In this document: positions 6,482 to 27,346 of the stretch, piece after piece
Numbering within the stretch: position 1 is the first letter of the stretch
How the letters are laid out: each line of letters opens with the position of its first letter
From: a bacterium
GTDB lineage: Bacteria > UBA8248
Length of the DNA: 64,000 nt
Direction: 5' to 3'
Assembly: GCA_965207065.1 (NCBI GenBank)
Contig: OZ242260.1
Location: 1,504,001 to 1,568,000, forward strand
The notes under the pieces: model-generated
Databases searched by the model: none
What the model was told of the DNA's origin: nothing
Seen by the model: the letters and a program-made list of their open reading frames with translations, nothing else
Program-made: the position numbers and the translations under genes

Positions 6482-7399
6482 GTGCGCCGTGGAAAGGCGC
6501 CATTCCCTAGCGGGTGCGAATCCCGCCCGGCAACTGTCGCTCCAGCCGGTAGCAATCGGGGCGGGTGATGGAGGCAACGACATGGCCTGAAGCACTCCGA
6601 TGGAAAAGGGCCGCCACGGGCGGCTCAGCGACCATGCGGGCCGCAACGCGAGTGAACGCCGAGCAGGCCTCGAAAATGCATGATGCGAGTGCCGACCCGC
6701 CTATGCAACGGGGAAGGCTGTCACCGGCCGGGAAGCGAGCGACATGAGCACCGGCCGGGTCTCGCCGGGGTAGTGGCGGCGGCACGCATGGAAGATGGGA
6801 ATGGCAGCAACACGGGAAGCCCTGCCGGTGGAGCGCACACTCCAACCGGAACCCCGCGAGGGGCAGGCCGGGCCGGCAGGGTGGCGGATGGGCTCGTAGT
6901 ACCTGAGAGGCCGGGTAACGCCGGCGGAGGAAAGGAGCCCTGGTTCGGGAGCGATGCGGAAAGGGAGGAAGGGCATGACCACTGGCGAGAGCCTATCAGG
7001 GTCGGAAAAGGCTCGGAAACTCCAGACCGTGTTACATGCGAAAGCCAAGGAAGAACCCGGACGGCGCTTCCACGCGCTGATAGACAAGGTGTGGCGCGAA
7101 GACTTTCTGGCCGAAGCCTGGAGGCGGGTCCGCCGCAATCGCGGGGCCGCCGGGGTGGACGGAGAGACGTTCGCGGACATCGAGGCGTACGGCGTGGGAC
7201 GCTGGCTCGGGGAACTGGCGCGGGAACTGAAGGATGGGGTATACGCACCGAAGCCTGTGCGACAAGTGCTCATCCCGAAGAAACAGCCCGGCAAGTTCCG
7301 GCCTCTGGGCATCCCCTGCATAAGGGACCGGGTGGCGCAGACGTCGGCCCTGCTCGTGCTTGAGCCGATATTCGAAGCGGACCTGCAACCGGAGCAGTA
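6482..7399 (+). mobile_element. group II intron, 5' portion, truncated by IS256
   Basis: GTGCG start, structured 5' region, candidate EBS1 TATGC (~6702) complementary to exon end GCATA, followed by RT ORF; no DV/DVI after the interruption. Confidence 0.8.
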
Positions 7400-16322: not shown

Positions 16323-17291
16323 CTATCTATCAGGCCATATTTCAGCATCCTCGCCCGGTTCTTGATTTGGCCTGAAATCCAGCAGGTAGGTTTCGGGGTC
16401 GATTTTCGAGAACGTAACATCTGTCCGGCCATACTCGATGAGGTGATGCCTCGTCACATACACGCCAGAACCAACACGTAGACGCGCCCTCAAGTAAGCA
16501 CCGAGCAAACTGTTGTCCTGTGTAGTGTGCAATCCCTTTCCGGCATCTTGAGCGCGAACACATATGAAGCTGTCGCCATCATCCGTAAGAACCGTGAATT
16601 GCTCAAACCTGTCAGGGAAGAATCCACTACGCCCCACGCTTGCGGGAATGTTGATGTAGGCTTGGTTCGGGTTTCTCCCAGACCTTTGCCCCCAGTTAAT
16701 GCCCGATCTGGTAGGCGTCTCACCTTCTCTCGAAAGAAGAGTGAGGGTAACGCTTTCAAGTGGGCTTCCCGTCTCAAAACCCTTCCGGCTTTGCAGCAAG
16801 GTGATCTGAGTGTCGATATGGGGCTGAATGCAGTCCGATGCGTTCCTGAGAATGAGGTTGTGGAAGTCGTTTGCATCGCATGAATCGGCTGGGGACATGA
16901 CCTCTATTTGCGCCCTTCCGAATCCCGTCATAGTATAGTTGGCGGAGCCGCAGAAAGCCTTTATCGGCTCTCCTTTGGCATTCAACCACACATACGATTT
17001 AGCATGAACTGGATTGCCTCGAACCACGTATCGGCAAATGAAGTCCGTATCCCAGGACGGATGATCCATCATTTTGCAGAATGCGGAATGCTGGGCTTCC
17101 TCTATCCCGTGTTGTATCGTCATGCCGATTATGAGTTCTATCGAGATGTTGAGGTCTAGTTCCTTCAGGTGCTCCATATGCCTGTCGGCCATATTCGCGG
17201 TAGCGAATCCGCTGACAATACGCAGGCGCCCTCCGTTCACGTCATACGCGGGCGATAGCAGGACTTCACGGAAGAGGTCTTCGTGGATCAT
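16323..17291 (-). CDS. PLD-type restriction endonuclease (NgoFVII-like)
   Basis: IVSGFAT, HAKSY...GSANYT PLD motif, SGINWGQ..RNPNQAYI; coupled to the MTase. Confidence 0.8.
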   Translation of the reverse strand: MIHEDLFREVLLSPAYDVNGGRLRIVSGFATANMADRHMEHLKELDLNISIELIIGMTIQHGIEEAQHSAFCKMMDHPSWDTDFICRYVVRGNPVHAKSYVWLNAKGEPIKAFCGSANYTMTGFGRAQIEVMSPADSCDANDFHNLILRNASDCIQPHIDTQITLLQSRKGFETGSPLESVTLTLLSREGETPTRSGINWGQRSGRNPNQAYINIPASVGRSGFFPDRFEQFTVLTDDGDSFICVRAQDAGKGLHTTQDNSLLGAYLRARLRVGSGVYVTRHHLIEYGRTDVTFSKIDPETYLLDFRPNQEPGEDAEIWPDR

Positions 17292-18373
17292 ATTGTGAGT
17301 TCATAAGCAGGGACGTCATGCTTGACGAGTGAATTCAGGACGGCGCGATAAACGACCTCCGCGCCCTTCGGTGGAACGGCCATGCCGATTTGCTTTCGCA
17401 CGGATTCTTTCCCGCCCTCAAAGACAAAGCTGTCGGGAAATGTTTGGAGTCTCGCCCTTTCTCTATTCGTCAAGGCGCGATTTTCTTCCCAATGATATAG
17501 ATGCGTTCCACCGCCACCGGAACCAGTAACCGTATAGCTTGGCGCATCCGGCTTGAGTCTTCTGTAAATTTGGCTGATGGTTGCGCCGCTCTTGAGGTTC
17601 AATTTTAGATGCTTGGGCAAATCAGCCGTGAAGGCGTTCTCTCCCGGCTTGATATGTTTCAACCTCTCGACAACATTTCCAGACTGGTTTGTGCGCTCGT
17701 TGTTGGTCGCATCATCCGGTATGTCGCTCAATGCTTCTTTAGCCGTATTGAAATTATCCATGTGTGTGGGCGCAGGATGCTCGAAAGAATCAATGCCCAG
17801 GTCTTTGCGAAAACCGACCACGAACAATCTGTGGCGCGCTTGAGGCACTCCGTATTCCTCTAGGCGATAGGTGTGCGGGAAAATCGCATATCCGGCTTTT
17901 CGCAGGGAAGACAGGATGATGGCAAAGTCTTTATTATCACCGCTCGACTTGATGCCGCTCACATTCTCGGCTACGAAAAATGCAGGTTTCTTCGCCTTGA
18001 GCGCACGCACTCCCCAGATGTAAAGGCCACCATGCTGGCCAGATATACCCCGTCGCTCTCCTATTACGCTGAAATCATTGCATGGGAACCCGAAGGCCAG
18101 CCCGTCAATATCCGCCAGTTCCTTGAAGTCCAAGTCCTTCACATCCCCGCACATGACACCGCCTTCCGGCAACGGGATATTATTTTCGAGCGTCTTGCAA
18201 GCATCCGCGTCCCTGTCGTTTACCCACACGTGAACGAAACCATGCCCGCCCACCTTCGCGTTGTGCGCGCCCAGCGTCATGCCTCCTGCACCAGCAAATA
18301 ATTCACCTATCCGATAGGTCTTGTGATCCGGAGATGGAGCCATAGCGAGCGCAAGCTGATTGTCGAAGCTCAT
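17288..18373 (-). CDS. DNA (cytosine-5)-methyltransferase
   Basis: ELFAGAGG, GFPCNDFS, AENVSG, PQARHR, RERARLQTFPD, QIGMAVPP. Confidence 0.93.
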   Translation of the reverse strand: MSFDNQLALAMAPSPDHKTYRIGELFAGAGGMTLGAHNAKVGGHGFVHVWVNDRDADACKTLENNIPLPEGGVMCGDVKDLDFKELADIDGLAFGFPCNDFSVIGERRGISGQHGGLYIWGVRALKAKKPAFFVAENVSGIKSSGDNKDFAIILSSLRKAGYAIFPHTYRLEEYGVPQARHRLFVVGFRKDLGIDSFEHPAPTHMDNFNTAKEALSDIPDDATNNERTNQSGNVVERLKHIKPGENAFTADLPKHLKLNLKSGATISQIYRRLKPDAPSYTVTGSGGGGTHLYHWEENRALTNRERARLQTFPDSFVFEGGKESVRKQIGMAVPPKGAEVVYRAVLNSLVKHDVPAYELTI

Positions 18374-19296
18374 CCGGTAAGCTCCCGCCAAGAGAGTTTC
18401 CCGCAGGTGATGCGGCTGATGATGTTTTCACATCGGATGCCTGAGCTTCGCTCTTTCCTCATGTTGAATCGAGCGGAGTATTCGTCCACATAGCGATGCA
18501 AATGCTTCGCGCTCATCTTGTAATAGACGCCGATATAACCGCGCTTGAGCAAGCTCCAAAAGCTTTCCACGCCATTCGTATGCGCCATGCCCTTCACATA
18601 CTGGCCTACGCGGTGGTTCACCATGACATGATGATAGAGACGGCCTAGATGCCGATAGGAGAGAAACTCATCCGTTGAAATGACCGACCCGGATGCGACC
18701 GACTTGAGGACTTCCCTTGCTATGGTGCGCTTCTTGGTGTTCTCGACTGGACGGGCCACAATATCTCCGCCTCGTTGTAACATCGCCAGGACGGGTTTCT
18801 TCGTTTTTAGACTGCGCCCCTTGGTTCCTCCGGTGCGCTTGTGTTTATGCTTGTTGGCCTCTCGACCCCCGATATAACTTTCATCGACCTCAATCGTTCC
18901 CGAGAGCTTGGGAGCCTTTTCGGTTGCGCCAAAGGCTTTTCTGATTCTGTGTTCCATGAACCATGCCGTATTGTATGCAACGCCAAGCTCACGCTGCAAC
19001 TGCGTAGCGGGAATGCCTCTGCGATTCGAGGACATGAGCCATATCGCCACGATCCATTTTCGGAGAGGAACTGGAGAATCCTGAAATATCGTGCCGATTC
19101 TCACAGTGAATTGATCACGGCAATCAGCGCACTTATACCGCTTCCCATCGCTGAAAGCATAGACCTTGCCCGTGCTTCCACACTTAGGGCAATACATCCC
19201 ATGCCGCCACCTGATTTGCGCGATGTACTTGTGAGCCGCTTCCTCGTTCGGTATGTTTTCGTATAGCTGATTCAGGCTGTCAAAACTTATTTCCAT
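18370..19296 (-). CDS. IS1595-family transposase
   Basis: Zn ribbon CPKC..CADC; EVDESYIGG, STDE, HTNGVESFWSLLKRG. Confidence 0.92.
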   Translation of the reverse strand: MEISFDSLNQLYENIPNEEAAHKYIAQIRWRHGMYCPKCGSTGKVYAFSDGKRYKCADCRDQFTVRIGTIFQDSPVPLRKWIVAIWLMSSNRRGIPATQLQRELGVAYNTAWFMEHRIRKAFGATEKAPKLSGTIEVDESYIGGREANKHKHKRTGGTKGRSLKTKKPVLAMLQRGGDIVARPVENTKKRTIAREVLKSVASGSVISTDEFLSYRHLGRLYHHVMVNHRVGQYVKGMAHTNGVESFWSLLKRGYIGVYYKMSAKHLHRYVDEYSARFNMRKERSSGIRCENIISRITCGKLSWRELTG

Positions 19297-19544: not shown

Positions 19545-20432
19545 GAAGGCTGCGGTGCCATCTGGCGGAGTTCGGGCTCATCGCTCCAAAAGGGGCCGGT
19601 TCATCTCACATGGTTGCTGTTGGCAGTGAAAGGTCTGGACTCGGGTCTGCCGGAGGCGGTGCACGAACTGGGCGGGGTTCTGCTCGCGTAGATTGCCAGC
19701 CTGAAGGAGAAGATACAGGAGTTGGAGGGGCAACTGCGCGCGAGCGCGCGCGAAGACGAGGAGGCGAGACACCTGATGAACATCCCGGGGGTCGGGTCGC
19801 TCTGCGCGTCGGTGATACAGGCCTTCGCGCCGCCGATGGAAAGCTTCCGACACGGGAGGGATTTCTCCGCCTAGATCGGCCTCGTGCCCCGACAACACTC
19901 CACGGGCGGCAAAACGCGGGTGGGCAGAATATCAAAGATGGGCCAGCGCGACATCAGGCGGCTTTTGATCATAGGGGCCATGGCGGTAGTGGGTTGGGCG
20001 GTCCGGCGCGGCGCGCCGGCGGGTTCATGGTTGGCCCGGATGTTGGCGCGCAAACCTCTTATGCTGGTCGCGGTGGCGCTGGCGAATCGAATGGCGCGCA
20101 TCGCTTGGGTGTTGATGACGAACAGGGAATTCCACAAGGAGCCTGTGCCGGTCATCTGAGCGGCAGGCGAGTGAATATAGCCGGGAGGAATGTAAGCAGG
20201 TCGGAGGACGGGTAAGGGAAAATGGTCGACGAGACGGGATCGGGAAAACCAGGGTACATTCGAGAGTTAACAAGCTCGCGAGGCCGATTCGGACCCGGTC
20301 CGCGCATCTCCATACGGGCCCGCGGTAAGAGTTAAACGCCGCAAACGAGAGGTCGGACATACGACTGCACCTGACCACGGACCCTGAATCGTTGAAATAA
20401 CATGCTTGTATTCACGGGGTCGTCCACATACG
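19545..20432 (+). mobile_element. second IS110/IS1111 copy, 5'-truncated, transposase pseudogene
   Basis: Homologous to 7430-8300; internal TAG stops; PRQHSTGGK; right end GGGGTCGTCCACATACG. Confidence 0.85.
20160..20430 (+). ncRNA. putative seek/bridge RNA region of IS1111 copy 2
   Basis: Same scaffold as copy 1; GTACATTCG (20254-20262) is the reverse complement of flank CGAATGTAC (20431-20439). Confidence 0.72.
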
Positions 20433-20508
20433 AATGTACGACAGAGCCTGACCGTATTGCGACGAACCCTCCGAAGAAAACGCTTGCATTCTAGTGGGCG
20501 TCCATGTT
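20431..20508 (+). mobile_element. right-end remnant of a third IS1111-type element
   Basis: TACGACAGAGCCTGACC...CTTGCATTCTAGTGGGCGTCCATGT parallels TACGACTGCACCTGACC...TTGCATTTACGGGGCCGTCCACAT of copy 1. Confidence 0.55.
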
Positions 20509-20618
20509 CATAAATATACGATTGGGTGAACGCGACCTCCCATCGACAGCGACTCGTTTGCTTTTGTTGCCAAGTCAGCGCATGCCACTTAACGAGATGT
20601 ATCAGTGGGAGTGAGGAA

Positions 20619-22777
20619 ATGAACATCGCAGAACTCAAACAAATTAGCCGGACTGGACCGGTTCTCGACATAACTAATTACACAGATCATTTCATAAGGT
20701 CACTTGTTAAGTTGATCCGAAGCACGAAACGTCACGGCGTTATGTTTGAGACGGAATCGTCGACTTCCGCAGCCGCATGGCTACTGTGTATAGCGGATGC
20801 CAATGCTTTCGGAACCCTCAGCACCGACGCTCAGTTGGAATGTACATTTCCCGAGATGGCTCCAAACCAACTCCTAGGATTTCGGGGGCAGAAGGCCAAA
20901 TATGAGAGTATTGTGACTAGACTGCATCGATTATTGCGCCAGGCTAAGCCCTGGAGAGGAGGATGCCATGACCTGAAACCTCTCGTAGCGACCCAGAGGG
21001 TTCGACTCCCGCCCGGCAAAGGCGAAGCCGGCCAGCCGGAAGCGAGTCTTGCATGGCGTGCGGCAACGCCCGTCGTGAAGCGTAGACAGCAGGTGATGAA
21101 GCGGCGGGGTAAGCCTCGAAATCGGTCAATCGACGACGCCTTCATTGTTAATCGTGTGGGGGCAGCACCGGGAGCGCCGCCAATGGCGAGGCGCAACGGG
21201 TCGTCCGGGGTCGTGGGCCGGCGCAAAGTCACGGGACGGGTCGCCAGGGAACCTGGGAGATCCTGCTCTTGCCCGTGGGCAAGAACGCTGGAAAGGGGAC
21301 GGCCAGCGTGAACAATCCAGACCCCGGCCCGTCGCCGGACCTGCACGGCGGCGGGAGCGCCCCAGGGCGGACACGAACCCGGCAGGCGCCCGCGGAACCG
21401 GCTGGCCAAAACAATAAGCCGAAGGACATGCGAGGGTAGGAAGTCGTAGCGCCCTGATAGTACCGCTGAAGGCGGGGAACCGTGGCCATCGGGACCCGCT
21501 GGAGGGAAGCGGGGCGTCATCTGTACAGAACCACTGATGGGAAACGATGGAGGAAACTCTGAGTTCCACCAACACGTACACGAAACAGCAGTGGATAGCC
21601 GAACAGGCGAGGAATGCCTCGACCTGCGGACCAAGGGTGACAACCCCTTGAGCGAACCTGTCAGGTGAGGAACCGAGTGCGTCAATCGCGCACGCTCGGG
21701 TCTGCGGGGGGAGGGGCGCAGCAATGCCCCCTCCTACCCGGCCCTCAAGAAAAGCGTGTCGAGGCAGACAAAGCTTTCAGTTGGTTTCGTGCTGCAATTT
21801 CAGCTTGGCACAATACAAACTTCCGCTACCTTAATGACATGTTCGACAATGGTGGGGTTGAGCATGAGTCCGCCATGGGTGTCGCGCAACATTACCAACT
21901 CCCCACTTTTTTAGTGGACTGGACATGGAATCCTTTCGTGGCCTTGGCGTTCGCCATGTCCGATCTAAGGGATGGTGAAGAGGGCGTGGTCTTTCTTCGA
22001 GATTTTGGCGACGGAACTAACCCAACATCCGACTATAACGTTCTTTTGCCGCCGTCGTTTGCCAAGAGAGCTTGGCGTCAAAGGGCGTTCTTTTCCTGGC
22101 ATCCAGTTGCTCCTGAGGATTGGGACAATCCGGTCGTGCAGAGAATTGCAGGGGATATTCCGCGGCATAATGCAATGCCCAACAATTATTATCACATCAA
22201 ATTTCGTGCGACTGAGAGTGACATAAAATGGGCGAAACAGAGTTATGCTGGATTGATGAAGGAGGATCTGCCCGGCTTGGGTTGCTTGGCGAAATGGTGT
22301 TTAGAAGCCGCACGAAAGGGCGCGAATGGGCCTTTACATCCCAATGTTCTCTCGTTGGATGATTTCCAGAAATGGTGTAATCGTTGCAACTTGAATTTAC
22401 CTGAGTTTGTGGTGACGAATCGAGAAGTGGAAGTAACAGAGAACTTTGCTCTCATGATGGATTATATAGATGAAATGAGCGTTAGGCGTAATCCAAGTAA
22501 TGGCACAATCGGTTACTTCATTCCGAGTGTGTTAACGGCCTGTGTGGGAATGCCATGGAACAGTTGTATGAAGTATCCCGCCCGCGGACTTAAGAACCTG
22601 AATGATCCAAGAGCAGATGTTTTCTTTGACGATGATGGGCAACCCTGTATGGATCACTGGCATAAAAAGCTGAGCTATATGAAGTCGTTGGTTGACATAA
22701 GACGTATACAGAACGACGATTTTTTTCGATCAATGTTTGTAGAACGCCCGCGGGGAAAGAGGCAACAAATCGGTTAA
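20619..22777 (+). CDS. FRG-domain protein split by a group II intron (exons 20619-20933 and 21743-22777; 449 aa spliced)
   Basis: FRGQ in exon 1; AQHYQLPTFLVDWTWNPFVALAFA and QRAFF in exon 2; exons join in frame. Confidence 0.8.
20934..21742 (+). mobile_element. ORF-less group II intron (809 nt)
   Basis: TTGCG start; DV GAGGAACCGAGTGCG..CGCACGCTCGGGTCTG; DVI ending CTACCCGGC; EBS1 TAATCG (21149-21154) pairs with CGATTA (20928-20933); only a short RT stub remains. Confidence 0.85.
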
Positions 22778-23009
22778 ATGTGGACACAATGATTGTACGA
22801 CTAAAACTTTTGCTTTGTTCGGGTGAGCTACTGTCGATGGGATGGACACAGAATCTATCTTGCAAACTGGGCCCGATCATTGTTTGCAGCAAGTGGAAAG
22901 GGGTTCCAATGAGAAGAAGAGCGGAGATGAGGGATTGAGTGTCAAATGAACCACGTGCCAAAATCGCTACATGAAACCGAAAATTATTGGTGTTTGGGTC
23001 CAGGTGTGG

Positions 23010-23461
23010 ATGCGGGAAGATCGCGGCATATTTTCACATTGCTGAGGAATTCATGGAATTGGGGATAGGGCGATTGGATGCATCGTCGTTTTCCCAGATA
23101 GGGTTTTATCGTTACAGCGTCGGCGTATTTTGTCTTGGCCATGCGTTTGAATTATTGTAAAAAGGCATTATTAAAAGAAAATGTTACAGGGCATAAATTT
23201 GGAACCTTATACAAGGCAATAAACGATTCGCGAAGGAGCGAGCTTGAAGATATCATTGTTGGTGAAGGATGGTCGTCAGTGGACGAGTTCCACAAATTCC
23301 TGCTTAAAACAATTAACCCCGTGAATAGAAAGTATTTTGATGAGAGTAGTGGGTGGGATATTTGGAGTCATGATGGCATTGGAAATGTAAACCATAAGTT
23401 GTGGCCGGGCTTAGTTCAATTGTGGAAACGAGTACACGATTACGCCGCGTCTAAAATTTGA
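23010..23461 (+). pseudogene. HEPN-like protein, frameshifted
   Basis: FCLGHAFELL in one frame continues as KALL..GHKFGTLY...RKY in another. Confidence 0.5.
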
Positions 23462-26328: not shown

Positions 26329-27346
26329 CGGCGCGCATCTGCTGTGCGCGCGGTTGCGCCGCTTGAACGTCGACGCCTCGGCCGGCAGCGAGGAGGAGTT
26401 GGCGCGGATCGTGGCGCAGGTCCGCAGGCGCTGGCCGCGTACGCGGGTCGTGGTCCGCGGCGACTCGGGGTTTTGCCGCGAACCGTTGATGCGCTGGTGC
26501 GAGGAGAACGGCGTCGACTACGTGTTCGGCATGGCGCGTAACGCGCGGTTGGTCCGGGCGATTGGCCGGGACCTCTACCGGGCCGGGGTCGTGTGCCACC
26601 GCAGCAGTGAACCGGCGCGCCGGTATCGCGACTTCCGCTATCGCACACGCAAGAGCTGGTCCCGAACCCGGCGGGTGGTGGGCAAGGCGCAGCACCTGCC
26701 CAGGGGGGCGAACCCCCGGTTCGTAGTCACCAGCCTCCGCCCCCGGCGGGCCGACGCCAGGCGCCTCTACGAAGAACTCTACTGCGCCCGGGGAGAGATG
26801 GAGAACCGCATCAAGGAACAGCAACTCGGCCTGTTCGCCGACCGCACCAGCAGCGCCACCCTGAAGGCCAATCAGTTGCGACTCTACTTCGCCTCCTTCG
26901 CCTACGTCCTGATGCACGGATTGCGACGCCTGGGGCTGGCCGGCACGACATACGCCAGGGCCCAGTGCGCCACGCTCCGGCTGAAGCTGCTCAAGCTCGG
27001 CGCCCGCGTGAGGGTCACCGTGCGCAAGGTCCGGCTGTCAATCTCCGGAGCCTACCCCCATGCGGCGACCTTCGAAAAGGTGCTGAACAACCTGCGTACG
27101 CACCCGCCCTGGCCGGCGGCGGGGGAGAGAAGCTGAACGTACAATCGCAGCGACGCTAATCCTTGCAGGGGGAAACCTGCGCCTGCGCGTCGGCCGACAC
27201 TCCGAAAAAGCATTCGTAAGGGCCGGGGAAACGCCTCTCGGGCACCGTGCGTCATCGTATCATGCCAGCGAAGAAGGCTGCCTCCCGAATAAAGCCGTCC
27301 ACAACTTCAAATCAGGCCGATCCGCAGCCTCGGTGAAATATCCGGG
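26329..27346 (+). mobile_element. IS1380-family remnant: C-terminal transposase and right end
   Basis: HLLCARLR, VRGDSGFCRE, NPRFVVTSL, YCARGEMENRIKEQQL; end GGTGAAATATCCGGG. Confidence 0.85.

Follow-up and report, generated by a model that had tools for sequence, protein, structure and literature searches.

An apparently recent, off-target insertion of a group II intron lacking its own reading frame into an FRG-domain gene

The stretch analyzed here (the window; 64,000 nt of a bacterial genome assembled as one 4.48-Mb contig) carries an FRG-domain gene at 20619-22777 of the forward strand, the reading frame of which is interrupted by an 809-nt insert at 20934-21742. The insert is a group II intron that lacks an open reading frame (ORF), and its removal exactly restores the coding sequence. 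With moderate confidence, we interpret it as a recent and selfish off-target insertion of a "rider" intron, served in trans by an intron-encoded protein (IEP), into an intact, horizontally acquired FRG gene, with splicing that should now be maturase-dependent. In this interpretation, an ORF-less deletion derivative of a mobile group II intron would have entered an off-target site in the intact gene by reverse splicing and reverse transcription, with the reverse transcriptase (RT)/maturase supplied in trans. Lying on the sense strand, the intron should in principle be removable from the mRNA, since it has the ribozyme sequence of its lineage, a perfect pairing of exon-binding site 1 (EBS1) with intron-binding site 1 (IBS1), and the IBS3 contact. 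Splicing would restore a 449-residue FRG protein and should depend on the maturase of a full-length intron (copy F, below) that lies 47 kb upstream; FRG expression is probably now reduced and contingent on that maturase.

The intron and the reading frame that it interrupts

The features of the gene and of the intron (hereafter copy A), in coordinates of the window, are the following.

20607 to 20616, forward strand: Shine-Dalgarno-like GGGAG/GAGG just 5' of the ATG at 20619, read from the sequence
20619 to 20933, forward strand: FRG exon 1, 105 codons, with the FRGQ motif at residues 88-91, from the sequence and homologue alignment
20928 to 20933, forward strand: IBS1, CGATTA, the last six bases of exon 1, forming 6/6 Watson-Crick pairs with EBS1
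20934 to 21742, forward strand: group II intron without an ORF, 809 nt, in sense orientation to the gene, starting UUGCG and ending CCCGGC, from Rfam matches, copy comparison, and junction alignment
21003 to 21220, forward strand: domain I-IV core, Rfam RF02005 (group-II-D1D4-6), 123.6 bits against a gathering score of 49, E 1.4e-34, full model 1-225
21122 to 21127, forward strand: candidate EBS2, TCGGTC, complementary to (G)ACCGA, present at -12..-7 in the family's usual insertion sites, and not to the FRG site
21149 to 21154, forward strand: EBS1, TAATCG, in a hairpin loop of domain I, forming 6/6 pairs with IBS1 and covarying with IBS1 in copy F
21547 to 21651, forward strand: remnant of the RT/maturase ORF in domain IV, 34 codons and a stop, from alignment to the full-length copy
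21670 to 21702, forward strand: domain V, with AAC instead of the AGC triad and an A.G mismatch at its middle position, from the RF00029 alignment and family comparison
21705 to 21742, forward strand: domain VI, with the bulged branch A at 21736, six bases 5' of the 3' splice site, from the RF00029 alignment
21743 to 22777, forward strand: FRG exon 2, 344 codons and a stop, its first base C being the presumed IBS3, from PF08867, PDC-S15, and homologue alignment

A first-pass annotation of this DNA had placed a group II intron of this length, with domains V and VI, at these positions, and the Rfam matches bear it out. In addition to the full-length match of the core to RF02005, the domain V-VI model RF00029 matched 21668-21742 (35.7 bits, under the gathering score of 40; E 4.3e-5 when 1.1 kb was searched locally), with the match terminating exactly at the proposed 3' splice site. 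The same annotation had reported a kept 5' end and a perfect six-base EBS1-IBS1 pair. The pair was found as described; as for the 5' end, the one proper to the lineage is present, and its sequence is UUGCG, not the canonical GUGYG. The RT was also correctly described as almost wholly lost, since only 34 codons remain of the 449 in the full-length copy. The first 22 of these match the start of the 449-codon IEP, and a short internal piece and the last codons persist as well.

When 20619-20933 was joined by script to 21743-22777, a 449-residue protein with the junction RLHRL/PQEKR resulted. The start at 20619, to which the N-termini of homologues align, and the in-frame junction both agree with the earlier annotation, as does the reunion of two motifs that the intron separates, FRGQ (residue 88, exon 1) and QHY (residue 154, exon 2). 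Without splicing, translation ends after 230 residues, of which 105 are genuine FRG residues, so that the full-length protein requires removal of the intron. The gene caller had retained only a 312-residue fragment (P0001) of what is a 449-residue product once the intron is removed.

A search of 5.8 billion clusters returned just 11 relatives of the FRG protein, one being the window's own 312-residue gene call and another beginning past the junction. The remaining nine of the 11 span the junction and show no break there, eight of them aligning without a gap (e.g., RLHR-LPQEKR against SLYR-LPEQER) and P0011 having one additional residue; the closest homologue, at 59% identity, is likewise unbroken. 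The spliced protein is thus colinear with intron-free homologues, and it retains 26/27 invariant and 39/42 near-invariant positions of ten homologues. Splice sites shifted by -1, -2, or +1 would place RF, RC, or RLS at the junction; they were ruled out because L-P is found there in 4/9 homologues and because EBS1 pairs with CGATTA. Exon 1 alone gave no match in a Pfam search, and a scan of 20200-23200 for promoters and terminators found nothing on the forward strand 5' of the gene, with counts no higher than in shuffled sequence.

Four public runs (X1, X3, X7, and X19) were aligned to the region, X7 and X19 being RNA from sponge-labelled metatranscriptomes. Short-read contigs of X1, which may be the assembly's own sample, cross both intron-exon junctions with 0 differences (20500-20960 and 21714-22900). 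Their summed depth over the intron is far above that over the exons, a comparison of contigs that cannot show expression level. X3 gave thin exon coverage and no bridging piece, and the RNA runs yielded contigs of the intron family only (window 20928-21612), including a full-length form that continues into the RT at 21612. These alignments bear on whether repeats were mis-joined in assembly, so that the intron only seems to lie in the FRG gene. The element is indeed a multi-copy repeat, and the assembly is a single 4.48-Mb contig; against such an artefact stand the X1 contigs, with the proviso on their origin, and boundaries that fit EBS1/IBS1 and restore the frame exactly. We regard an artefact as scarcely credible.

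Related copies and their insertion sites

To place copy A within its family, the 809-nt intron was searched against the organism's own genome. Five ORF-less copies were found at five sites: A in the FRG gene, B, identical to it over 809/809 positions, C, with 2 differences from A, and D and E, which are 790 nt long, 92% identical to A, and differ from each other at 2 positions. Two copies are full-length, namely F (2029 nt), 47 kb upstream of A and outside the window, and G (4260 nt; G000:C1:2285140-2289399). Over the ribozyme, F is 97% identical to A, and of the two full-length copies G is the nearer to A (5 mismatches over 679 nt vs. 21 for F). Several intron fragments are also present in the genome. 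Similarity among the complete copies stops precisely at TTGCGCC... and ...CCCGGC (7/7), beyond which the flanks differ, and each copy has C as the first base of its 3' exon. A domain V hairpin with an AC bulge, and a domain VI with a bulged A near the 3' end, were seen in all 14 distinct 3' ends of the family, which were drawn from 16 listed sequences after two inverted domain VI remnants of locus L003 had been set aside. A compensatory A-U vs. C-G exchange in domain VI separates copies A, B, and C from the others. Inverted partial copies of domain VI also adjoin copy C (G000:C1:2259468-2259500 and L003), so that intron 3' ends make up a palindrome there.

A congener (G013) and a genome from a different family within the same class (G044) also carry ORF-less relatives, the deletion ends of which are partly different, and a second ORF-less sublineage is found in G002 and G011. 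Judging from these sequences, the ORF-less introns are a lineage of non-autonomous elements rather than the one-off product of a decaying intron. Since one copy elsewhere in the genome is identical to A and another differs at 2 positions, the insertion into the FRG gene is, by sequence comparison, very recent. Stop-free exons would therefore be expected with or without selection; the first-pass annotation had remarked on them, and they are not evidence of selection. The identity of A with a copy inserted elsewhere does suggest that the RNA of copy A was active when it moved.

The insertion sites of the family were compared. An inverted repeat holds six of the seven copies, each of them preceded by '..CCGAACGNTTA' or a close variant. 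The usual site, 'ATCACC...CCGAACGNTTA/C' (the slash marking the point of insertion), lies in a long inverted repeat at copies B, C, E, F, and G and at copies in five other genomes (G002, G011, G013, G014, and G044), and at copy G the arms of the repeat are 16 nt long and perfect. The open frame in which copy C is found, 91 nt in, continues downstream as an IS110 transposase, and the usual target may be the end of an IS110-family element. The candidate EBS2 would pair with (G)ACCGA of the usual sites, and the FRG exon has no candidate IBS2. EBS1 of copy F (TAAGCG) forms 6/6 pairs with the end of its 5' exon (CGCTTA), a covariation relative to the 6/6 pairing of copy A, and the remaining five copies have 4-5 EBS1-IBS1 pairs, wobbles included. 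From these comparisons the FRG site is ectopic, having no more in common with the usual target than IBS1 and the IBS3 base. By simple arithmetic, hundreds of such seven-base matches are to be expected in a genome as large as this one, and nothing marks out the FRG gene as a target.

Catalytic core, maturase supply, and the state of the gene

The lineage to which copy A belongs has an unusual catalytic core. The ends UUGCG...GC are found in 7/7 complete copies of this genome and also in copies of G002, G011, G013, G014, and G044. Domain V reads GAACCG where the canon is GAGCCG, so that the triad is AAC, and its middle A faces G, or C or A in relatives; among the copies, one has UAC and one GAC. 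According to the excerpted text of a review of these introns (PMC4424553), "the vast majority" have 5'GUGYG...AY3' and a triad of AGC (or CGC), and another intron in this genome, which belongs to the same Rfam type, conforms, with GUGCG, AGC, and ...AAU. A limited literature search, which did not extend to primary surveys and supplements, found no report of an AAC triad in group II introns. Since the lineage shows fresh and precise insertions, the core with U1, AAC, and ...GC is presumably active. We hold it likelier that the lineage is a group II ribozyme that is mobile in nature and has changed in a coordinated way at three positions of its core than that a host exploits the insertion in its FRG gene.

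A search of the genome for a cognate maturase, which the first-pass annotation had proposed, found a candidate in copy F. This copy has an uninterrupted 449-codon RT/maturase frame that matches TIGR04416, the NCBI equivalog for group II RT/maturases, over residues 44-411 (364 bits, cut-off 300). The ratio of nonsynonymous to synonymous substitution rates (dN/dS) of the frame is 0.18 and 0.20 against the intact copies of two congeners. The codon at its start position is CTG; after it, the first codon that could serve as a start is a GTG, codon 31. An insert of ~2.2 kb that encodes Resolvase, Recombinase, and Zn_ribbon_recom domains splits the RT of copy G at the conserved ..PQGGV/ISP.. motif, with RVT_1 profile positions 127 and 124 on either side; the RTs of two congeners (G011 and G012) are split at the same residues, ~224-235. 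Introns that share this Rfam RNA type contain two further RT frames of 493 residues, which are identical to each other but show an identity of only 41%. Altogether, the supply of maturase for the FRG intron in this genome is doubtful.

Several observations weigh against a spliceable rider served by copy F. The sole unbroken cognate IEP has CTG at its start position, where copies A, B, C, and G have ATG and copies D and E and three congeners have TTG, and a serine-recombinase element interrupts the RT of G, the full-length copy nearest to A. At three positions, the core is non-canonical (U for G at position 1, AAC for AGC, and ...GC for AY). No spliced joint was found in any of the four runs, the RNA runs having no exon contigs and containing little of the organism. 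The Asp of WTWDP, invariant in the family, is Asn in the spliced FRG protein. Finally, polishing of the assembly could have made the repeat copies look more alike than they are.

Some of these points would fit a different history, in which the insertion effectively killed the gene: with no working cognate maturase, the intron would remain unspliced and the FRG gene would be a very young pseudogene that has not yet acquired stops. The broken RT of G, the CTG of F, and the Asn residue are what such a history would lead one to expect, as are the absence of the candidate EBS2-IBS2 pairing at the FRG site and the end of the unspliced frame after 230 residues; the lack of FRG exon sequence in the RNA runs points weakly in the same direction, given how little of the organism they hold. 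However, the 449-codon frame of F is open and belongs to a lineage under purifying selection by its dN/dS values, and initiation at the GTG of codon 31 would still yield everything that TIGR04416 matches. The two further RT frames are an additional potential source of maturase, and the identity of A and B implies that a working IEP acted very recently. We therefore consider a dead gene rather unlikely, and continue to favor, at the confidence stated above, a recent rider insertion from which the FRG protein could be made when maturase is available.

The FRG protein, its surroundings, and comparison with known introns

Exon 2 matches the Pfam FRG domain (PF08867) with 41.1 bits against a cut-off of 25, the match covering only profile positions 55-91 of 94, and thirteen PADLOC models of PDC-S15 match it as well (best E 6.3e-13). 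PDC-S15 is the designation under which PADLOC lists FRG proteins as a single-gene defence candidate. The FRGQ, QHY, DW, and WRQR motifs are conserved in the protein and its homologues; these matches are shared with FRG/PDC-S15 proteins at large, from which the present subfamily differs in a C-terminal extension of ~250 residues and in having few relatives (the 11 in 5.8 billion clusters). The available part of PMC9503650 assigns Frg to the ADP-ribosyltransferase superfamily and proposes it as a potential antiviral effector that may be a NADase (an enzyme consuming nicotinamide adenine dinucleotide, NAD); listings of other FRG-domain literature, as far as their entries go, contained nothing pointing to a functional test. 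For structural comparison, the intron-free homologue P0003 was modelled (pLDDT 77). Foldseek with this model returned nothing at E <= 0.001; with VIA-align the best Z was 4.2, and many weak rows (Z 3-4.2, all <5) were of the ADP-ribosyltransferase fold, aligned to residues ~78-280, which is suggestive only. The FRG protein is a candidate NAD-using effector of this superfamily, and to this extent the first-pass description of it as a candidate conflict-associated enzyme stands.

The GC content of the exons is 47% vs. 59.5% for the genome, and the gene, with or without the intron, was found in 0/41 other genomes of the family. A contig scan for the genomic context of homologues gave only four distant loci, on short contigs. 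Some 2.2 kb upstream of the FRG gene lies an apparently intact type II restriction-modification pair (window 16323-18391, reverse strand), comprising an NgoFVII-type PLD endonuclease with a B3-like domain and a C5 cytosine methylase. The first-pass annotation had remarked that many neighboring genes are decayed. This holds for an IS110 remnant (19884-20159) and a C-terminal transposase fragment (26354-27136), and does not hold for the restriction-modification pair, an IS1595 transposase, and a tyrosine recombinase, all of which have full-length domain matches. From its composition, distribution, and neighbors, the FRG gene looks like recently acquired accessory DNA in an island of defence and mobile-element genes. 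Downstream in the same low-GC stretch is a 108-residue ORF (window 23135-23461, forward strand) without a Pfam or PADLOC match. Elsewhere in the window, amid nested mobile elements, a different group II core (RF02003, 86.7 bits, 6508-6651) is accompanied by an RT remnant at ~6984-7385, a 166-residue frame with 41% identity to the IEP.

It is against this background that the function proposed by the first-pass annotation, a possibly toxic defence protein gated by splicing, has to be considered. Under such a scheme, the intron would be retained so that a toxic FRG effector is made only when splicing is permitted. The protein is a candidate defence effector by its PDC-S15 matches and by the description in the available part of PMC9503650, the restriction-modification pair is nearby, and the full-length product needs splicing, all of which would suit a gate. 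However, the intron is identical over 809/809 positions to a copy at an unrelated site, which leaves no time for selection on the arrangement; it belongs to a proliferating family of riders that usually insert in a repeat associated with mobile DNA, and the site is off-target for that family. Moreover, an ortholog was found in 0/41 of the other genomes searched, and neither the closest homologue nor the others that span the junction (9 of 11) show any break there. We consider a gate very unlikely, and the proposal is not supported as an account of function. We would give no better chances to a host that tolerates or exploits the insertion, with a toxic, NAD-consuming FRG effector made only where the maturase of a retroelement is present, and with defence thereby coupled to the bacterium's own mobile introns. 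With its rider intron, the FRG gene provides a new instance of a phenomenon already known, and no evidence of a purpose-built splicing switch.

A survey of ORF-less bacterial group II introns was reportedly made by Simon et al. in 2008. Among listings on group II introns and sponge symbionts, no relevant paper appeared, judging from the entries themselves. Introns of this type are rare in bacteria, and their genomes nearly always contain a closely related intron as well, with an IEP that may serve them in trans, according to the excerpt of PMC4424553. The closest precedent for the present case is that of TeI3, ORF-less introns in Thermosynechococcus elongatus, which are mobilized by the "driver" IEPs of TeI4 introns, as the accessible portion of PMC2882425 describes. 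Both systems show an ORF deletion in domain IV that leaves N- and C-terminal remnants of the ORF, several near-identical copies at different sites with good EBS/IBS pairing, and related ORF-containing introns in the genome, some with IEP genes disrupted by other mobile elements; in both, most copies lie outside ordinary genes. In contrast to the TeI3/TeI4 system, the host here is a bacterium from sponge-associated samples, there is only one unbroken cognate IEP frame (with CTG at the start position), the intron ends are UUGCG...GC and the domain V triad is AAC, copy A lies inside a candidate defence gene, and the FRG system is known from sequence alone.

A second point of comparison is UHB.I2, a group IIB intron beside an integron attC site with the boundaries 5'-UUGCG..GU-3', as given in the available text of PMC7923331. 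It shares with the FRG intron the non-canonical UUGCG 5' end and insertion by a site that forms a stem-loop, and differs in the short ORF and the ...GU end with which it was described.

Here a very fresh insertion in an ordinary, non-mobile protein gene shares a single closed genome with donor-like copies, with a broken driver, and with an IEP that is a candidate driver. Should the activity of the non-canonical core, which shows signs of recent movement, be confirmed, it would be of interest to researchers working on ribozymes and on the spliceosome. Since donor-like copies, candidate driver, and broken driver occur together, this genome may offer a compact natural system for asking how far off-target a rider intron can land and yet still splice.

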